A stretch of 64,000 bases of DNA from contig JAEELI010000017.1 of the NCBI GenBank assembly GCA_016288795.1, forward strand, positions 85,856 to 149,855, given 5' to 3'. The notes beneath the pieces were generated by a model. That model saw nothing but the letters and a program-made list of their open reading frames with translations, was not told the origin of the DNA and ran no database searches. Origin of the DNA: Bacillales bacterium. Lineage in GTDB: Bacteria > Bacillota_I > Bacilli_A > RF39 > UBA660. Shown here piece after piece: positions 7,500 to 16,242 of the stretch (the stretch's first letter is position 1; each line of letters begins with the position of its first letter). The translations under genes were made by a program, and so were the position numbers.

Positions 7500-7730
7500 A
7501 ATTTTTAAGGCGGAACAAGACAAGTAAATTAAAATAGTTTTAAGAGAGTTAGTGATTGGTGAAAACTAATAAATGATGTTTAATTTATATCACTTGGGAG
7601 CTAATTATTTGAAATATAGTAAAATAATTCGTTGATGGCGTTAACATATAGAGATGAATAATTCATGAATTAAGGTGGTACCACGGGTTTACTCGTCCTT
7701 AAGTTATGAATTTTTTTAATTTTTAGAAGG
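7500..7730 (+). promoter_or_regulatory. T-box riboswitch leader of ileS
   Basis: Stem I element AGAGAGTTAGTGATTGGTGAAAACTAATAAATG; T-box sequence AATTAAGGTGGTACCACGG at ~7669-7687 followed by U-rich terminator. Confidence 0.75.
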
Positions 7731-7737
7731 GTGATTT

Positions 7738-10700
7738 ATGAAAAATTTTGAAAGTCTAGATGGAAGAGAAGTTCATTTAGTAGAAAAAGACATTCGCGAA
7801 AGATGGCAAAAAGAAAATATATTAGATAAATGTATTGAGAACCGAAAAGATAATGATAATTGGGTGTTTTATGATGGACCAATTTATGCTAATGCAGCTC
7901 CAGGTATCCACCACGTATTTGCTAAAACAATTAAAGATGCTTTTTGTAAATATAAAACAATGCAAGGATATCGTGTTTTAAGAAAGATTGGGTTGGATAC
8001 CCACGGATTACCAATTGAAGTTAATGTAGAAAAGAAATTAGGTTTTACAAGTAAGGCTGATATTGAAAAATTTGGAGTAGAGAACTTTTGTAAAGAATGT
8101 AATAAAGCAACAGCAATCAATATTGGAGAAATAAATAAAGTTACTGATATGATGGGCCAATTCATTGATTGTGATAATCCTTATGTAACATGCTCAAATG
8201 ATTATATAGAATCTGAATGGTGGATTATTAATGAATTAAATAAAAAAGGATTAATATACCATGGCTCTAAGGTTTTACCTTATTGTCCTCGTTGTGGAAC
8301 TGAACTTTCTTCAAATGAAGTAGCTCAAGGTTATGAAAGTGTTTCTGTAAATACTGTCATAGTGCCATTTAAATTAGTAAATGAAGATACTTATGTACTT
8401 GTTTGGACAACTACACCTTGGACATTAATGGCAAATGTGGCACTTTGCGTTAATCCAAGTTTAGAATATTTAAAAGTTCAATCAATGGGCTATAACTTCA
8501 TTGTTGGAGCATCTCTAGCTAATTCTGTTTTAGGAGATGAATATGAAGTTTTAGATAAATATAAAGGCAAAGACTTAGTAGGATTAAAATATGAACAATT
8601 ATTACCTTTTGTTAAAGTAGAAGGAAAATCTTTTGAAATAGTTGCTGATAATTATGTTACAGATTCTGATGGAACAGGTATTGTTCACATAGCTCCTGCA
8701 TATGGTGAAGATGACAATCGTGTTTGTCGTGAAAATGATATTACTTTTATAAATCCAGTTGGAAAAGATGGAAAATATAATGAAGGTCCTTGGAAGGGTA
8801 GAGTTGTTACATCTTCAGAGTTAGAATTAGATATTATTAAATATTTAAAAGAAAATGATAAATTATTCAAAAAGATTAAAATGACTCATGATTATCCACA
8901 TTGTTGGCGTTGTAAAGAACCATTAATTTATTATGCTAAACCAGCTTGGTATGTAAAAAATACTAAATTAAAAGAAGAAATAATAAAAGAAAACAATAAA
9001 ATTAATTGGTTCCCAGCATATGTTGGTGAAAAACGTTTTGGTAACTGGTTGGATAACATGATTGATTGGAGCATTTCTCGTAATCGTTACTGGGGATGTC
9101 CACTTCCTATTTGGACTTGTGAATGTGGAAACTTTGAATCAATTGGTTCATTAGACGAATTACAAGAAAGACTAATTGAAGATATAGATGTTAGAAAAAT
9201 AGAATTACATAGACCTTATGTAGATGATTTACATATAAAGTGTTCTAAATGTGGAAAAACAATGGAAAGAGTTAAAGATGTTATGGACGTTTGGTTTGAC
9301 TCAGGGGCAATGCCATATGCTCAATTCCATTATCCATTTGAAAATAAAGAGTTATTTGAAAGTCAATTTCCTGCAGATTTCATTGCCGAGGGAATAGATC
9401 AAACTAGAGGATGGTTCTATGTTTTACTAGTAATATCTACACTATTAAGTGGTAAGTCTTCATTTAAAAATGTTGTTGTTAATGATATGATGCTAGATAA
9501 AAATGGCAAGAAAATGAGCAAATCACTTGGTAACATTGTTAATCCAGTGGATATTATGACTAAATATGGAGCAGATGAAGTTAGATTCTATTTAATGTAT
9601 GCCAGCCCTGTATGGACACCATTAAAGTTTGATGAAGAAGGCATAAAAGAAGTTCATTCTAAATTCTTTAATCCATTTAAAAACACTTATAATTTCTTCA
9701 GCATGTATGCCACTACTGATAATATTGATATTAAAGATTGTCAAATTGCAGTTAAAGATAGGGAAGAAATTGATAAATGGTTATTATCAAGATACAATTC
9801 TTTATTAAAGAATGTTTACAATAGTTATGAAGAATACGATCTAAATAAAGTAGTTAAATATGTAACAAACTTTGTATCCGATGATTTATCTAATTGGTAT
9901 ATTAGAAGATGCCGTAATCGTTTCTGGGGAAGTGAATTGAATAATTCTAAAAAATCAGTTTATATAACTACTTATGAAGTTTTAGTAGGATTATCAAAGA
10001 TAATCGCTCCAATAACTCCATACATTTCTGAAGAAATATATACAAAACTAACTAAAGAATATTCTGTTCATACTTCAAATTTTCCTAAATTTGATGAGAA
10101 ATTGATAGATTTAAAACTAGAAGAAAAAATGGATTATGTTAGAAATTTAATTTCTATGGGAAGAATGGTTAGAGAAGAATCTAAAATTAAAGTTAGAACT
10201 CCATTAAGTGAAGCAATTATAGATAAAAATATCTATGATAAAATATCTGATTTAATACCATTAATAGAAGAAGAATTAAATGTTAAAAAGTTAGTTAAAG
10301 AAGATAATCTATCTAGGTATATGAATATGACTATTAAACCAAACTACAAAGTAGTTGGGCGTATATTCGGTTCTAAATTAAAAGAATATGAAGAATTCTT
10401 AAGTTCTTCAGATATAGATGAATTAAATAAAGAAAATGTAGTATTCAACGGAACTACTATAACTAAAGATATGTTTGAAGTTAAAATATCTTCTAAAGAA
10501 GGATTTAATGTTGGAGTTTTAAATAATCTATTTATAGTTTTAAATACTAATTTAACTGAAGATTTAATAAATGAAGGTCATGCTAGGGAATTCGTTTCTA
10601 AGATTCAAAACATGCGAAAAGAAAATTCATTTGAGATTAGTGATAGAATAAATATTTATTATAGTAGTTTAGAATTTAAACCAATAGTTGATCATTTTGG

Positions 10701-10815
10701 AGATTATATTAAAAAAGAAACTTTAGCAATTAATATAGTTGAAAAAGATAACTTAAAAAATGAATTATCTGTTAATGGCATAAAAGTCCTAGTAGATATT
10801 GAAAAAGCAAAATAA
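7738..10815 (+). CDS. ileS: isoleucyl-tRNA synthetase
   Basis: HIGH-type motif (PGIHHVFAKT), KMSKS motif, 1025 aa, zinc-finger Cys clusters. Confidence 0.92.
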   Translation: MKNFESLDGREVHLVEKDIRERWQKENILDKCIENRKDNDNWVFYDGPIYANAAPGIHHVFAKTIKDAFCKYKTMQGYRVLRKIGLDTHGLPIEVNVEKKLGFTSKADIEKFGVENFCKECNKATAINIGEINKVTDMMGQFIDCDNPYVTCSNDYIESEWWIINELNKKGLIYHGSKVLPYCPRCGTELSSNEVAQGYESVSVNTVIVPFKLVNEDTYVLVWTTTPWTLMANVALCVNPSLEYLKVQSMGYNFIVGASLANSVLGDEYEVLDKYKGKDLVGLKYEQLLPFVKVEGKSFEIVADNYVTDSDGTGIVHIAPAYGEDDNRVCRENDITFINPVGKDGKYNEGPWKGRVVTSSELELDIIKYLKENDKLFKKIKMTHDYPHCWRCKEPLIYYAKPAWYVKNTKLKEEIIKENNKINWFPAYVGEKRFGNWLDNMIDWSISRNRYWGCPLPIWTCECGNFESIGSLDELQERLIEDIDVRKIELHRPYVDDLHIKCSKCGKTMERVKDVMDVWFDSGAMPYAQFHYPFENKELFESQFPADFIAEGIDQTRGWFYVLLVISTLLSGKSSFKNVVVNDMMLDKNGKKMSKSLGNIVNPVDIMTKYGADEVRFYLMYASPVWTPLKFDEEGIKEVHSKFFNPFKNTYNFFSMYATTDNIDIKDCQIAVKDREEIDKWLLSRYNSLLKNVYNSYEEYDLNKVVKYVTNFVSDDLSNWYIRRCRNRFWGSELNNSKKSVYITTYEVLVGLSKIIAPITPYISEEIYTKLTKEYSVHTSNFPKFDEKLIDLKLEEKMDYVRNLISMGRMVREESKIKVRTPLSEAIIDKNIYDKISDLIPLIEEELNVKKLVKEDNLSRYMNMTIKPNYKVVGRIFGSKLKEYEEFLSSSDIDELNKENVVFNGTTITKDMFEVKISSKEGFNVGVLNNLFIVLNTNLTEDLINEGHAREFVSKIQNMRKENSFEISDRINIYYSSLEFKPIVDHFGDYIKKETLAINIVEKDNLKNELSVNGIKVLVDIEKAK

Positions 10816-12443: not shown

Positions 12444-12935
12444 TTAATTAAATTTAACAGTTATATATTTATTTACAGTGTATAATTCCTGAACGCTTCT
12501 TATTATTTGATTAGCTAAAGAATTATCATGTTTATTTGAGGCAATGACAATACTAATAGTATTGTCTTTTATTTTCACAAAAGAATCTAAACCGTGTTTA
12601 TTCTTAATAGTCATTTTAATTTTATTTTCTTCTGAAGAATTATCATTTAATTTTTGCATATCATCATATGCTTTATTCTTTTCTTCTAGAGAAGTCTCAG
12701 AATTTAATAATACATCTTGATATTCTTCTAATAGAGTCTCTCTTTCTTCTTCTTTTTCTACTTCCAATGCAACCAATTCATCAGATTCACTAATTTCAAT
12801 TACTTCTTTAGATAAATTATCACTTTCAGTTTTAAGAACTTTGGCTGCTTCGTCCCCAATACTAAGATAATAAAGTCCTAGTATAAGAATTAAAGAAAAA
12901 AGAGTTACAAACCATAGATTTTGTTTATTTATCAT
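12444..12935 (-). CDS. membrane-anchored acidic coiled protein, hypothetical
   Basis: N-terminal TM then Glu-rich segment; divergent from bacteriocin ABC transporter. Confidence 0.4.
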   Translation of the reverse strand: MINKQNLWFVTLFSLILILGLYYLSIGDEAAKVLKTESDNLSKEVIEISESDELVALEVEKEEERETLLEEYQDVLLNSETSLEEKNKAYDDMQKLNDNSSEENKIKMTIKNKHGLDSFVKIKDNTISIVIASNKHDNSLANQIIRSVQELYTVNKYITVKFN

Positions 12936-13047
12936 TATTATTTCTCCTAGTCTAATAAATAGTATGATTTTTTTTAAAAAAAATTACATTCAAAAAAAGG
13001 AAATTAACCTCAAGCATGCAAACATTAATAGTGAAGGGAGGAAAAGG

Positions 13048-15117
13048 ATGAAAAAAATAAAGCCTATTTTGCAAAGAGATTTAAAAGATTGTGGTGTTTG
13101 CTCAATGGAGTGGATAATTGAATACTATGATGGTTATGTTTCGTTGGAAAAATTAAGAGAAGATACTTGCACAAGTATCAACGGAACAACAGCTTATCAT
13201 ATAGTTGAAGCCTTTAAAAAGTGGGGATTTGATTCAGTGGGAGTTTTGGTTAATGATTTATTATCGCCCAGTGTTAAGTTTCCTTGCATTGCCCATTTGT
13301 CTTTAAAAAATGGTTTAGAACATTTTGTCGTTATCAAGGAGATATCTAAAAACACAATATATATAATGGATCCAGGTGTTGGCGATATCAAATGGACAAT
13401 CAAGTATTTTTCGGAATTGTGGACTGGACATCTCATAATGGCATATCCAAGAGAAAAGATTATTAAAATGGAAAAAGAAATACATATTAGTGATTTATTT
13501 ATCAAAATTATTAGAAACGAAAAAAGTCTTGTTAAAAAAGTGATAGCCACTAGTATGATTTGGACTATTTTGTTAATTATATCAAGCTATTATTTAAAAA
13601 TAGCAAGTGCTTTATTAACAGAAAATTCTTTATTATTAAAAATAATTATTATAATCTTTGGGATAGTAATTATTATTAAAGTTTGGTCTTTATTTGTTCG
13701 ATCTTATTATGAAAATCATTTAAGCAATTTGGTTGATACTTATATTTATCCAGAGTTTATTCGGCATCTTTTTTTCCTTCCTTTAAAAAGTATCAAGAGT
13801 AGAACTACTGGGGAAATAATTACTAGAGTAAGTGATTTATCAAATATAAAAAGCTTATTCTCTGATATTTTTGTGACAGTTGTATTGGACTCATTAATGA
13901 TACTTATATCCGGTATTATTTTATTAACTATTAATACAAAGTTATTTGCGATATTAATAATATTTATAATTATTTATTCCTTAATTGGGATAATTGTTAG
14001 CAAGATAATGTTTAAAAAAATAATGGCTAATATCAGCTATCAAACAGATTTTAATGGTTTCTTAGTTGAAGCAATTGAAATGTTTGAAAGTGTTAAAAAC
14101 TTAAATTGTTCAGATATTATTTTAAATGTTATAGAAAATAAACTATCAAAGTATTTATTAAGTAATTATGAGTTTATTAATTTTTTTAACAAAAGTAATT
14201 TTGTTAAAGAGTCATTATTAGAATTATGTCTATTTTTAATTAATTCTTTAGGCTTATGGTTAGTTTATTCTCAAAAACTCGCTATAATTGATTTGTTTAC
14301 TTTTAATATAATTATTTCATATTGTTTAGATCCTGTGAAAAATATTATAAACATGTTACCAAAGTATAATTATATAAAAGCAACATTTAAGAAAATCGAA
14401 GAGTTTATCGAATTAGAAGAAGAAAAAATTAATTCTAATAGTGTGATAGATGTTCAAGGGGATATTGTCTTTAGTAATGTAGGTTATTCCTATAATAATT
14501 ATGATTATTTAATAAATGATTGTAATTTAACAATAAAAAAAGGAAGTCATGTTTTATTAAATGGTCCTTCAGGTATAGGAAAATCTACTATATGTAAACT
14601 TATTTATAAAGAAATGGAACCTACTAAAGGAAATATAATGATTGGAAACAATAATACAAAAGATTTGGATATGACTAGTATTAGAAATAGTGTTTTGTAT
14701 ATTGGACAAAATGAAGAGATATTTACAGGTAGTATTAGAGATAATATTGTCTTAAATAGGAAAATATCTGAAAATGAATTTCAAACAATTTGTGATTTGT
14801 GTGAAATTGAAGAGATAGTTTCAAAAAAAGAAATGCGCTTTAATTCTTTAATTGATCCATCTTCCAAAACTATATCCGGCGGTGAGAAACAAAGAATAGT
14901 TTTAGCAAGAGGGTTACTTAAAAGAGCCAATATTATAATTTTAGATGAAGCTCTTTCAGAAGTGGATGAAATGTTAGAAACAAAGATTATTGGTCAACTT
15001 AGGAAACATTTTCAAGACAAAACGATTATTTATATTTCTCATAAGAATCAAATTAATAACTTTAATGACACAATTAATTTAGGAGTTAAAAATGAATTAT
15101 TACAAAATAAATTATGA
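13048..15117 (+). CDS. bacteriocin-processing ABC transporter with N-terminal C39 peptidase domain (double-glycine leader cleavage/export)
   Basis: C39 catalytic Cys context QRDLKDCGVCSM; six TM region; Walker A LNGPSGIGKST, signature ISGGEKQRIVLAR, Walker B IIILDEA; start moved to ATG 13048 after GAAGGGAGG RBS. Confidence 0.85.
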   Translation: MKKIKPILQRDLKDCGVCSMEWIIEYYDGYVSLEKLREDTCTSINGTTAYHIVEAFKKWGFDSVGVLVNDLLSPSVKFPCIAHLSLKNGLEHFVVIKEISKNTIYIMDPGVGDIKWTIKYFSELWTGHLIMAYPREKIIKMEKEIHISDLFIKIIRNEKSLVKKVIATSMIWTILLIISSYYLKIASALLTENSLLLKIIIIIFGIVIIIKVWSLFVRSYYENHLSNLVDTYIYPEFIRHLFFLPLKSIKSRTTGEIITRVSDLSNIKSLFSDIFVTVVLDSLMILISGIILLTINTKLFAILIIFIIIYSLIGIIVSKIMFKKIMANISYQTDFNGFLVEAIEMFESVKNLNCSDIILNVIENKLSKYLLSNYEFINFFNKSNFVKESLLELCLFLINSLGLWLVYSQKLAIIDLFTFNIIISYCLDPVKNIINMLPKYNYIKATFKKIEEFIELEEEKINSNSVIDVQGDIVFSNVGYSYNNYDYLINDCNLTIKKGSHVLLNGPSGIGKSTICKLIYKEMEPTKGNIMIGNNNTKDLDMTSIRNSVLYIGQNEEIFTGSIRDNIVLNRKISENEFQTICDLCEIEEIVSKKEMRFNSLIDPSSKTISGGEKQRIVLARGLLKRANIIILDEALSEVDEMLETKIIGQLRKHFQDKTIIYISHKNQINNFNDTINLGVKNELLQNKL

Positions 15118-15502
15118 TAAATTACTTAATATTAGACAAAAGAAATATTTTTTAGGACTAATGATTTTAATAATGATATTTACTGTTTCTATAATAATAA
15201 TATCTTTGATTGAATTTGATAGTTGGAATGATGTCTATGGTATATATAGCAATAATAGATTACATATAAAGATAAATAAAGCACTTTCTGATGTAGTTAA
15301 AAACAATAAATCTTTAGTGTTCAATCAAAAAATTGTTAATTATAAAATAGATAAATATTTAAATGATGAAATTATAGATAATTATATATATCAAAATATT
15401 GATTTAATTGTTGATAATAATTTTGCGGAAGATGAAATTGTCTTAGTATCTTTTAAAAGTAAAAAGACACTAGGGAAATATATTTTTGAATTATTTAAAT
15501 GA
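15092..15502 (+). CDS. short membrane protein coupled to the C39-ABC gene (truncated accessory-like or immunity candidate)
   Basis: overlaps ABC stop; cytoplasmic N-term + one TM (FLGLMILIMIFTVSIIIISLI) as in LcnD/ComB N-termini but only 136 aa. Confidence 0.4.
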   Translation: MNYYKINYDKLLNIRQKKYFLGLMILIMIFTVSIIIISLIEFDSWNDVYGIYSNNRLHIKINKALSDVVKNNKSLVFNQKIVNYKIDKYLNDEIIDNYIYQNIDLIVDNNFAEDEIVLVSFKSKKTLGKYIFELFK

Positions 15503-15511
15503 GGAGGTAAT

Positions 15512-15652
15512 GTGAGTAAGTTAGATAATGAGGAAATGTTAAATGTTAAAGGTGGTGGAGCGGCCTTATTAACAGCTTTTGAAGTGACAAGTATTTTTAT
15601 ATTTGTTATGGGGTTTATAAAAGGTTATAAGAAAGCCCCTAGATGTCCATAA
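15512..15652 (+). CDS. double-glycine-leader bacteriocin precursor 1 (46 aa, GTG start; not in ORF track)
   Basis: GAGGAGG RBS; leader MSKLDNEEMLNVKGG with hydrophobics at -4/-7/-12/-15 and EE at -8/-9; mature GAALLTAFEVTSIFIFVMGFIKGYKKAPRCP. Confidence 0.7.
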   Translation: MSKLDNEEMLNVKGGGAALLTAFEVTSIFIFVMGFIKGYKKAPRCP

Positions 15653-15661
15653 GGAGGTAAT

Positions 15662-15796
15662 ATGTTAGATAACGAAGAATTATTAACTATTACTGGTGGT
15701 GCTTTTAAATTAAAACTTATCAGTATAGTTGGTGGATTTGTTGTATTTCTAATCGGGGTTGTAGATGGAATTATAAATCCTAAAAAATGTAATTAA
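15662..15796 (+). CDS. double-glycine-leader bacteriocin precursor 2 (44 aa; not in ORF track)
   Basis: AAGGAGG RBS; leader MLDNEELLTITGG; mature AFKLKLISIVGGFVVFLIGVVDGIINPKKCN. Confidence 0.75.
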   Translation: MLDNEELLTITGGAFKLKLISIVGGFVVFLIGVVDGIINPKKCN

Positions 15797-15806
15797 GGAG
15801 GTATTT

Positions 15807-15968
15807 ATGTTAAGTAGTGAAGAATTGCTAGATATTAAAGGTGGATCATGGACTGCAACATTGTTAAATGCTGTTTCTCGTCTAATTACTACAATGTTGG
15901 GTTTAGGCCAAGTTTTTGGTTCATCTGTCAGAAGAGTAGTAACAGGAAAAACATGTAAAATTAATTAA
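15807..15968 (+). CDS. double-glycine-leader bacteriocin precursor 3 (53 aa; not in ORF track)
   Basis: AAGGAGG RBS; leader MLSSEELLDIKGG; mature SWTATLLNAVSRLITTMLGLGQVFGSSVRRVVTGKTCKIN. Confidence 0.75.
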   Translation: MLSSEELLDIKGGSWTATLLNAVSRLITTMLGLGQVFGSSVRRVVTGKTCKIN

Positions 15969-15997: not shown

Positions 15998-16026
15998 TTG
16001 TCAAATCAATTTGCTAGTGTTATAAT
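15998..16026 (+). promoter_or_regulatory. sigma-A-type promoter upstream of rpsU
   Basis: TTGTCA, 17-nt spacer, extended -10 TGtTATAAT. Confidence 0.5.
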
Positions 16027-16056: not shown

Positions 16057-16242
16057 ATGACAAAGGTTGTTGTTCAAAACGGCAATATTGATGGTGCACT
16101 AAAGAAATTTAAAGCTAAGGTTGCAAGAAGCGGAGTCCCTTCAGAACTTAAGAAAAGAAAATTCCATGTTAAACCTGGAGTTGAAAGAAGAATAAAAAAA
16201 GAAGAAGGAATTAAAAATTCTCATAAAAAAAATCATAATTAA
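16057..16242 (+). CDS. rpsU: 30S ribosomal protein S21
   Basis: 61 aa basic protein, GAGGG RBS, conserved S21 N-terminus and position next to yqeY. Confidence 0.9.
   Translation: MTKVVVQNGNIDGALKKFKAKVARSGVPSELKKRKFHVKPGVERRIKKEEGIKNSHKKNHN

Follow-up and report, generated by a model that had tools for sequence, protein, structure and literature searches.

The window analysed here is a stretch of 64,000 nucleotides (64 kb; guanine-cytosine (GC) content 27%) from a Bacillales bacterium (assembly GCA_016288795.1, contig JAEELI010000017.1, positions 85,856 to 149,855). Between its positions 15512 and 15968, three consecutive open reading frames (ORFs) on the plus strand encode short peptides with double-glycine (GG) leaders, called pep1, pep2 and pep3, downstream of a gene for a peptidase-containing ATP-binding cassette (ABC) exporter (PCAT). 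Judged from their sequences and those of their homologues, these peptides fall into two partner families, both undescribed, from uncultured gut bacteria of low GC content: family A (pep1/pep2 type) and family B (pep3 type). Together they represent a large and undescribed variant among class IIb-like two-peptide systems, with a single invariant Cys in each peptide as its hallmark. A and B probably act as a two-peptide agent on membranes, in a way that depends on the cysteines and perhaps on a disulfide between the two. To the more specific proposal that the locus produces an exported, class IIb-like membrane agent with a disulfide between A and B, in which membrane activity, antagonism and the disulfide are what we infer, a probability of about 0.45 is given.

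The first-pass annotation of this DNA had described three GG-leader peptides with exactly one Cys each, located two to four residues from the C-terminus, and both the coordinates and the peptide ends have been confirmed. The three ORFs, of 46, 44 and 53 codons, are the following (lengths in amino acids, aa):

15512-15652, plus strand: pep1, GTG start, leader MSKLDNEEMLNVKGG, mature part GAALLTAFEVTSIFIFVMGFIKGYKKAPRCP, 31 aa
15662-15796, plus strand: pep2, leader MLDNEELLTITGG, mature part AFKLKLISIVGGFVVFLIGVVDGIINPKKCN, 31 aa
15807-15968, plus strand: pep3, leader MLSSEELLDIKGG, mature part SWTATLLNAVSRLITTMLGLGQVFGSSVRRVVTGKTCKIN, 40 aa

Each start codon is preceded by GGAGGT, and GGAGGTAAT stands upstream of the GTG start of pep1 at the same spacing as in pep2. 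The leaders, ending in NVKGG (pep1), TITGG (pep2) and DIKGG (pep3), are 13-15 residues long, slightly below the 15-30 residues given for those of class IIb (PMC2850506). The peptides themselves finish in KAPRCP, NPKKCN and GKTCKIN, with the only Cys at positions -2, -2 and -4 from the C-terminus, and no other GG-leader ORF is present in the window. Taking into account the Cys frequency in the long ORFs of the window (1.2%), hand arithmetic gives about 3e-5 as the chance of one Cys within the last four residues of three independent peptides, a figure whose assumption of independence fails because pep1 and pep2 are paralogues. In this respect the initial description, which spoke of three unrelated peptides, has to be amended: pep1 and pep2 are 32-37% identical and share the register F-x2-G-x3-G-x3-P-x2-C, pep1 being best described as an additional A-type paralogue that has diverged, and pep3 belongs to an obligate partner family.

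In pep2 the landmarks are G32-x3-G36, P40 and C43, and the mature part is predicted to be a hydrophobic transmembrane-type helix (Kyte-Doolittle 19-residue maximum 2.47, net charge +3). In pep3 they are G34-x3-G38 and C50, and the mature part is predicted to be an amphipathic cationic helix (hydrophobic moment 0.47, net charge +5). Exact copies of the window peptides are limited to a small number of NCBI assemblies from this organism. In L003 (127-261), pep2 occurs as a strain-level variant with G-to-V and D-to-E changes (...IVVGFVVFLIGVVEGIINPKKCN), which keeps the Cys and has an acidic residue inside GxxxG.

When pep3 and the 136-aa protein encoded between PCAT and pep1 were used as queries, a word-indexed search of 5.8 billion proteins retrieved only the queries themselves. 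Three other routes led to homologues: a syntenic locus in a metagenome-assembled genome (MAG), a profile of three A sequences, and a profile of two B sequences used in a full HMMER scan. The first of these, L006 (MAG label "Bacilli bacterium"), came from a PCAT scan of species-representative genomes and contains a PCAT (61% identity), a 137-aa protein (38%), orthologues of pep2 (57%; ...VIDGLLNPRKCN) and pep3 (60%; ...SKKACKIS) and then rpsU; that is, within this near clade PCAT and the peptides show much the same degree of conservation, and the accessory protein a lower one. The profile built from pep1, pep2 and this pep2 orthologue pulled in 38 more A sequences. In the A alignment (39 sequences), G12, G13, F29, G32, G36 and C43 are invariant and P40 is conserved in at least 90%; the Cys is found in 39 of 39 sequences, at a fixed spacing of +7 from GxxxG.

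For the B family, a HMMER scan with pep3 and one homologue against 1.84 billion cluster representatives (E<=1e-3) gave 300 clusters at 50% identity, and the statistics that follow refer to the best 150 of these 300 representatives, among which 147 are short peptides. The mature part of these 147 contains one Cys in 124 cases, two in 20, three in 1 and none in 2, both Cys-less peptides being truncated sequences. The mature motif, G-x3-G-x11-C, is matched by 140 of the 150, and the Gly-to-Cys spacing is exactly 12 in 138. Only five columns, G12, G13, G34, G38 and C50, are invariant in the B alignment (91 sequences).

Nearly all A homologues also have exactly one Cys in the mature peptide, and no intact Cys-less member exists among more than 180 A and B representatives. 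For the reality of the observation this conservation is the deciding evidence, and it makes the observation much stronger than could be seen from the window alone. In both families the Cys is no less strictly conserved than the GG cleavage site and the GxxxG glycines, over a PCAT divergence reaching down to about 27% identity. The claim of a single conserved C-terminal Cys therefore holds as regards conservation; its position, however, is set relative to GxxxG (+7 in A, +12 in B) and not to the C-terminus, the tail after the Cys having 0-4 residues in nearly all homologues and more in a few. A lone Cys had also been called unusual in comparison with the Cys pairs of disulfide-containing class II bacteriocins, and this assessment is upheld, its conservation marking it as non-random.

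Within the near clade, the ratio of nonsynonymous to synonymous polymorphism (pN/pS) is about 0.45-0.5, with pS saturated, and purifying selection can therefore be deduced. In a profile-profile comparison of A and B the leaders alone could be aligned, and the two are thus regarded as complementary families, not as duplicates of each other. Covariation between A and B residues, looked for by eye (e.g., between the acidic residue inside the A GxxxG and residues of B), gave no consistent pattern, the pairs being too few.

About 28 distinct loci have been collected from context look-ups and a metagenome scan, together with 2 reached from B-family members. At every locus whose sequence spans the whole pair, an A-type gene is followed by a B-type gene; the pairing of A with B is obligate. 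PCAT lies directly upstream of the pair wherever the upstream flank was fetched. The A and B genes are separated by 7-24 nucleotides (nt), or overlap by 1-16 nt (the pep2-pep3 gap is 10 nt), and are predicted to be translationally coupled. A second A copy, pep1, is present only in the organism of the window, and the ancestral unit would therefore be the pair and not the trio. The minimal cassettes (L027, L052, L053 and L057) consist of PCAT, A and B only, with no third gene.

Other arrangements of these genes have also been observed. P0127, a protein of 102 aa encoded on a 506-nt ENA contig, is an apparent in-frame A-B fusion (...ARPFNCRQEEKN-MEKEELQEINGG-TSITG...) in which both GG sites are kept; it carries little weight, because a sequencing or assembly error is possible. 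L047 (1813-3748) matches L036 (2030-2420) exactly as far as the codon for the second GxxxG glycine of the A peptide; beyond it lies foreign DNA with genes for a replication-like protein of 275 aa and for a ParA-like ATPase. P0038, from another species, shares the junction peptide (QIKLK-W/stop-QNRKNTEFKG...). It seems that the same mobile element has been inserted at the same A-gene site in two lineages, and since the A gene is interrupted in both, it would be dispensable.

The genes located upstream of the peptides in the window are:

13048-15117, plus strand: PCAT, ABC exporter with an N-terminal C39 peptidase domain (Pfam Peptidase_C39 5e-30, ABC_membrane 1e-23, ABC_tran 2e-27)
15092-15502, plus strand: 136-aa protein with one N-terminal transmembrane segment, overlapping the PCAT stop by 26 nt

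The mechanical ORF of PCAT begins at 12964, and because its homologues have 678-687 aa, the ATG at 13048 is its likely start. The protein scores 385 bits against NCBIfam TIGR01193, under the 524-bit cutoff. Counted from this start, it contains Q9, C15 (DCG), H92 (HFVV) and D108 (DP), with the spacing of the catalytic residues of the ComA peptidase, followed by Walker A at 506, SGG at 610 and LDE at 632. With peptidase and ATPase motifs intact, this PCAT should be an active leader peptidase and exporter. The 136-aa protein could be an export accessory or an immunity protein. Homologues of 131-143 aa occupy the same position in many, not all, cassettes; no match was obtained for it in Pfam, NCBIfam, PADLOC or PDB by sequence and profile searches, and in its AlphaFold model the predicted local distance difference test (pLDDT) is below 50 for residues 49-136, beyond the transmembrane helix. 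Its ORF and pep1 lie in one frame, with only TGA plus 9 nt between them (15500-15514), and public gene calls on short contigs (L001:3-371, L002:1-402) read through this TGA, fusing the two. Readthrough has been rejected, since TGA serves as the stop codon in 3 of 39 long ORFs, and reading with genetic code 11 leaves the long housekeeping ORFs intact; the fused calls are probably a code-4 gene-calling artefact on AT-rich contigs.

From its sequences, the cassette would work like a class IIb two-peptide bacteriocin, formal membership being incomplete as regards the immunity gene and the curated cutoffs. As in this class (lactococcin G, enterocin 1071 or plantaricin type), two adjacent genes code for different GG-leader peptides in one operon with a C39-ABC exporter and a small accessory gene, and each peptide bears a GxxxG, forms a hydrophobic or amphipathic helix and is cationic towards its C-terminus. 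GxxxG motifs occur in all characterised two-peptide bacteriocins, class IIb operons contain an ABC transporter and an accessory gene, and the peptides form a parallel helix pair with cationic C-termini (PMC2850506). Unlike class IIb, a review of which mentions cysteine 0 times (PMC2850506), the peptides described here have one invariant Cys each, with no recognised immunity gene, a conserved position by rpsU and, for the peptides of the window, scores under every curated cutoff. Thus, pep2 reaches 20.6 bits against TIGR03949 (cutoff 21.5), 22.1 against NF038034 (37) and 16.1 against PF10439 (27.1), and pep1 and pep3 give lower scores or no match to curated peptide models. At the family level, 31 of the 39 A sequences match NCBIfam TIGR03949 (class IIb, lactobin A/cerein 7B) and 25 of 39 match lactococcin G-beta (E<=0.01); some members other than those of the window reach E of about 2e-6, and the matches to TIGR03949 and NF038034 range from sub-threshold to threshold. 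For B, no model matched beyond the leader. The window peptides have only sub-threshold matches in Pfam and NCBIfam and none in the PDB, and neither family nor its motif strings are described in the literature searched, in agreement with the initial impression that this was not a described family. Nor does that literature report any bacteriocin with a disulfide between peptides or chains.

In gallocin A, a two-peptide GG-leader system, Cys near the termini are needed, reduction abolishes activity and a thioredoxin-like surface protein is involved; the intramolecular disulfides required for activity in its subclass were presented as the first for class IIb (PMC10100652). This subclass (gallocin A, brochocin C, thermophilin 13, as well as ABP-118) has in common with the window two GG-leader peptides and Cys near the termini, on which the activity of the subclass depends. 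However, its peptides have two Cys each, forming an intramolecular bridge that staples a helical hairpin, they measure 42-60 aa with few charges, and they come with an immunity peptide, GIP, whereas the window peptides have one Cys each, measure 31-40 aa and are cationic. Lactococcin B, a thiol-dependent class IId bacteriocin, is, like the window peptides, an unmodified GG-leader peptide with a single Cys, which has a redox-sensitive role; it differs in acting as one peptide without a partner, in the location of its Cys in mid-sequence and in the lack of sequence similarity. The GG-leader pheromones (ComC/BlpC) are short and unstructured, and genes for their cognate histidine kinase and response regulator lie beside them, whereas the mature peptides studied here are membrane-type helices of 31-40 aa, with no kinase or regulator in the flanks examined.

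Taking these comparisons together, the following mechanism is proposed. PCAT, the 136-aa single-pass protein, A' (pep1), A (pep2) and B (pep3) form a four- to five-gene operon. The precursors would be cut after Gly-Gly by the cysteine-protease domain of PCAT, which would export the mature peptides. The A and B helices would then pack through their GxxxG motifs in a membrane, making it leaky, as proposed for the lactococcin-G type, and after export the Cys of A and that of B would form an interpeptide disulfide, locking a parallel 1:1 heterodimer. With one Cys per peptide an intramolecular bridge is excluded, and an interpeptide one is favoured by the fact that in both families a single Cys has been fixed C-terminally of GxxxG, always at the spacing typical of the family. 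Basic residues flank the Cys in both A and B, and basic neighbours are known to lower the pKa of a thiol, favouring the reactive thiolate. According to a rough estimate made by hand, the reach past the second Gly (three helical residues, Pro and three extended residues in A; 12 helical residues in B) is about 17-18 A in both peptides, so the two thiols could meet in a parallel, GxxxG-packed dimer. An A-B disulfide is thus a plausible reading, the most economical one and the best fit to the comparative data from which we infer it. Such a bridge, if true, would explain an enforced 1:1 stoichiometry and the parallel register; as far as we know, no earlier class II two-peptide system is known as a covalent heterodimer. 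Short and unmodified, the peptides can readily be made by synthesis, so that the hypothesis is directly testable. The family is confined to poorly studied, mostly uncultured low-GC bacteria of gut and rumen, and is missed by annotation pipelines.

It has to be noted that several observations weigh against a disulfide-linked, antagonistic pair. According to the sources of the samples, the hosts appear to be anaerobes of the gut or rumen, where disulfides are less favoured, and neither the cassette nor the window has a gene for a thiol-disulfide oxidoreductase. In the lactococcin G model, the C-termini of the peptides end in the reducing cytoplasm of the target. The AlphaFold model of the P0127 fusion has low confidence (pLDDT 57) and gives no structural support. 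Immunity genes are always included in class IIb operons (PMC2850506), and the minimal PCAT-A-B cassettes differ in this, no immunity gene being recognisable in any cassette. Finally, in most loci whose downstream flank was fetched the cassette lies directly upstream of rpsU, and the identity of PCAT falls from 64% to 27% as that of RpsU goes from 97% to 59%, a co-divergence that would fit vertical inheritance. The whole looks more like a core-like, vertically inherited locus than a typical accessory bacteriocin locus.

The features of this genomic setting in the window are:

12444-12935, minus strand: SpoIIIAH-like gene (Pfam 2.3e-12), divergent from PCAT
12996-13004, plus strand: AAAGGAAAT motif (R-W-AGGA-x-x-T), candidate -35 or regulatory element of the cassette, lying some 50 nt before the start codon of PCAT
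15998-16026, plus strand: rpsU promoter of sigma-70 type, TTGTCA-17-TATAAT with TG extension (11/12 positions, the best in the region)
16057-16242: rpsU (Ribosomal_S21 8.5e-18)

The strong rpsU promoter marks the downstream boundary of the cassette, after which come rpsU, yqeY, yabP and yqfD. In the near clade the gene order is kept, ileS-fmt-...-spoIIIAH (minus strand), then PCAT, accessory gene, A and B, then rpsU-yqeY-yabP-yqfD-...-era-recO, among genomes whose IleRS are only 67-72% identical. Cassette and flanks do not differ in GC content, and no cassette peptides were found on plasmids (by tblastn) or on viral contigs (by scan). Among the distant cassettes, those of L027 and L058 lie directly by rpsU, that of L044 is one gene apart from it, and that of L062 is located between dnaJ and rpsU; those of L052, L053 and L057 are elsewhere in the genome, in unrelated, non-sporulation contexts.

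No promoter of sigma-70 type was found in the spacer upstream of PCAT. The AAAGGAAAT motif appears at about -50 in at least 13 related loci, near and distant (window, L021, L024, L025, L027, L031, L033, L038, L042, L043, L044, L056 and L059); since the window as a whole contains 6 copies, where about 4 would be expected, the motif is no rarity and only this positional conservation counts. Its AGGAAAT element is similar to a sigma-H -35 box. A sigma-H promoter has not been adopted as its interpretation, because the motif is not rare and because L031 and L033 are the only loci with a correctly spaced CGAAT -10, most loci having none.

This setting raises the possibility, doubtful in our opinion, that the exported A and B are a domesticated, vertically inherited pair serving the own biology of the producer (stationary-phase or sporulation signalling, sibling killing or the envelope), with the Cys involved in A-B pairing or in receptor binding. 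The place by rpsU, kept across deep divergence, and in the near clade between the SpoIIIAH-like gene and rpsU-yqeY-yabP-yqfD, speaks for such a role, as do the lack of a recognised immunity gene, the GC content, the absence from plasmids and viral contigs, and the sigma-H-like element with its GAAT -10 match in two loci. A precedent would be MAM of Faecalibacterium, which is much longer than the window peptides. It is a single protein, with no pair of 30-40 aa peptides and no GxxxG/Cys signature. Its likeness to the system described here lies in a GG-type leader, an adjoining PCAT of which it is a substrate, and a constant nearness to sporulation genes, and it is not known as a bacteriocin (PMC8836110). 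Nevertheless, the cassette has no linked receptor kinase or regulator: neither histidine kinases nor response regulators (HisKA, HATPase, Response_reg) were found in the cassettes or in the 5-8 kb flanks with Pfam gene calls. Moreover, L052, L053 and L057 stand apart from any sporulation context, a mobile element disrupts the A gene of both L047 and P0038, most loci have no sigma-H-like -10 box, and the hydrophobic or amphipathic, cationic, GxxxG-bearing character of the peptides is that of pore-forming class IIb agents, not of short pheromones. It might also be imagined that both ideas are combined, in a large, undescribed class of disulfide-linked heterodimeric GG-leader peptides, inherited vertically by rpsU, without an immunity gene, across a deep lineage of uncultured low-GC gut Bacilli, which would serve the physiology of the producers (for instance entry into stationary phase or sporulation) or kin discrimination and would not be classical bacteriocins; we consider this unlikely. 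In any case, the conserved position and the missing immunity gene bear on the question of whether all PCAT-exported GG pairs are weapons or some of them have housekeeping functions.

A different alternative retains the two-peptide bacteriocin and questions the bridge, the Cys being free thiols or forming A-A and B-B homodimers, with a reduced state, a metal or a receptor contact as possible roles. Lactococcin B has been reported to require a reduced thiol, the habitats of the hosts are apparently anaerobic and reducing, no oxidoreductase is linked to the cassette, and the lowering of the thiol pKa by basic flanks, which is established chemistry, applies here equally. Still, it is hard to explain why both families should independently fix one Cys, on the same side of GxxxG and at constant spacing, unless the two residues act together, and for this reason the alternative is held to be improbable, and an A-B disulfide is preferred to it.

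It is far less probable that the Cys is a site modified by an unlinked enzyme (S-glycosylation, lipidation or a thioether), although the conserved local motifs, P-x-x-C in A and K/R-rich-x-C in B, could be recognition sites. These two motifs are unlike each other, and no gene for a glycosyltransferase, LanB/C/M/D, radical SAM enzyme or acyltransferase is consistently near any of the roughly 30 cassettes, including the 5-8 kb flanks with Pfam calls, which disfavours the suggestion of another modification made in the first-pass annotation. Glycocins (sublancin, glycocin F) are also PCAT-exported GG-leader peptides with an essential S-glycosylated Cys, C-terminal in glycocin F; they need an adjacent glycosyltransferase and two nested disulfides, neither of which is seen in the cassettes. 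The systems described here differ likewise from lanthipeptides, no LanB/C/M or LanD gene being present in any cassette or flank examined. As for three C-terminal Cys arising by chance in ordinary class II peptides, the shortness of the peptides and the paralogy of pep1 and pep2, which are not independent, lend it something, and the invariance of the Cys in both families down to about 27% PCAT identity has effectively refuted it.

Some further observations concern the surroundings of the cassette. In the window, as in L021-L043, the SpoIIIAH-like gene stands alone, away from any spoIIIA operon, and its pairing with PCAT is retained in loci where other upstream genes differ (L027, L038 and L043). 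Farther upstream of it come an ORF that matches nothing in Pfam, then fmt and ileS, the last of which is preceded by a leader of T-box type:

7504-7703: T-box leader (115 bits), upstream of the isoleucyl-tRNA synthetase gene
7738-10815: isoleucyl-tRNA synthetase gene

In some distant cassettes, other proteins are encoded just upstream of PCAT. One family, of about 150 aa, has a signal peptide and a hydrophobic region (L044:1642-2097, L059:883-1344), and another, of about 250 aa, is formed by multi-pass membrane proteins with a GP-x2-P-IYG-x-G motif (L044:2116-2892, L043:1749-2486).

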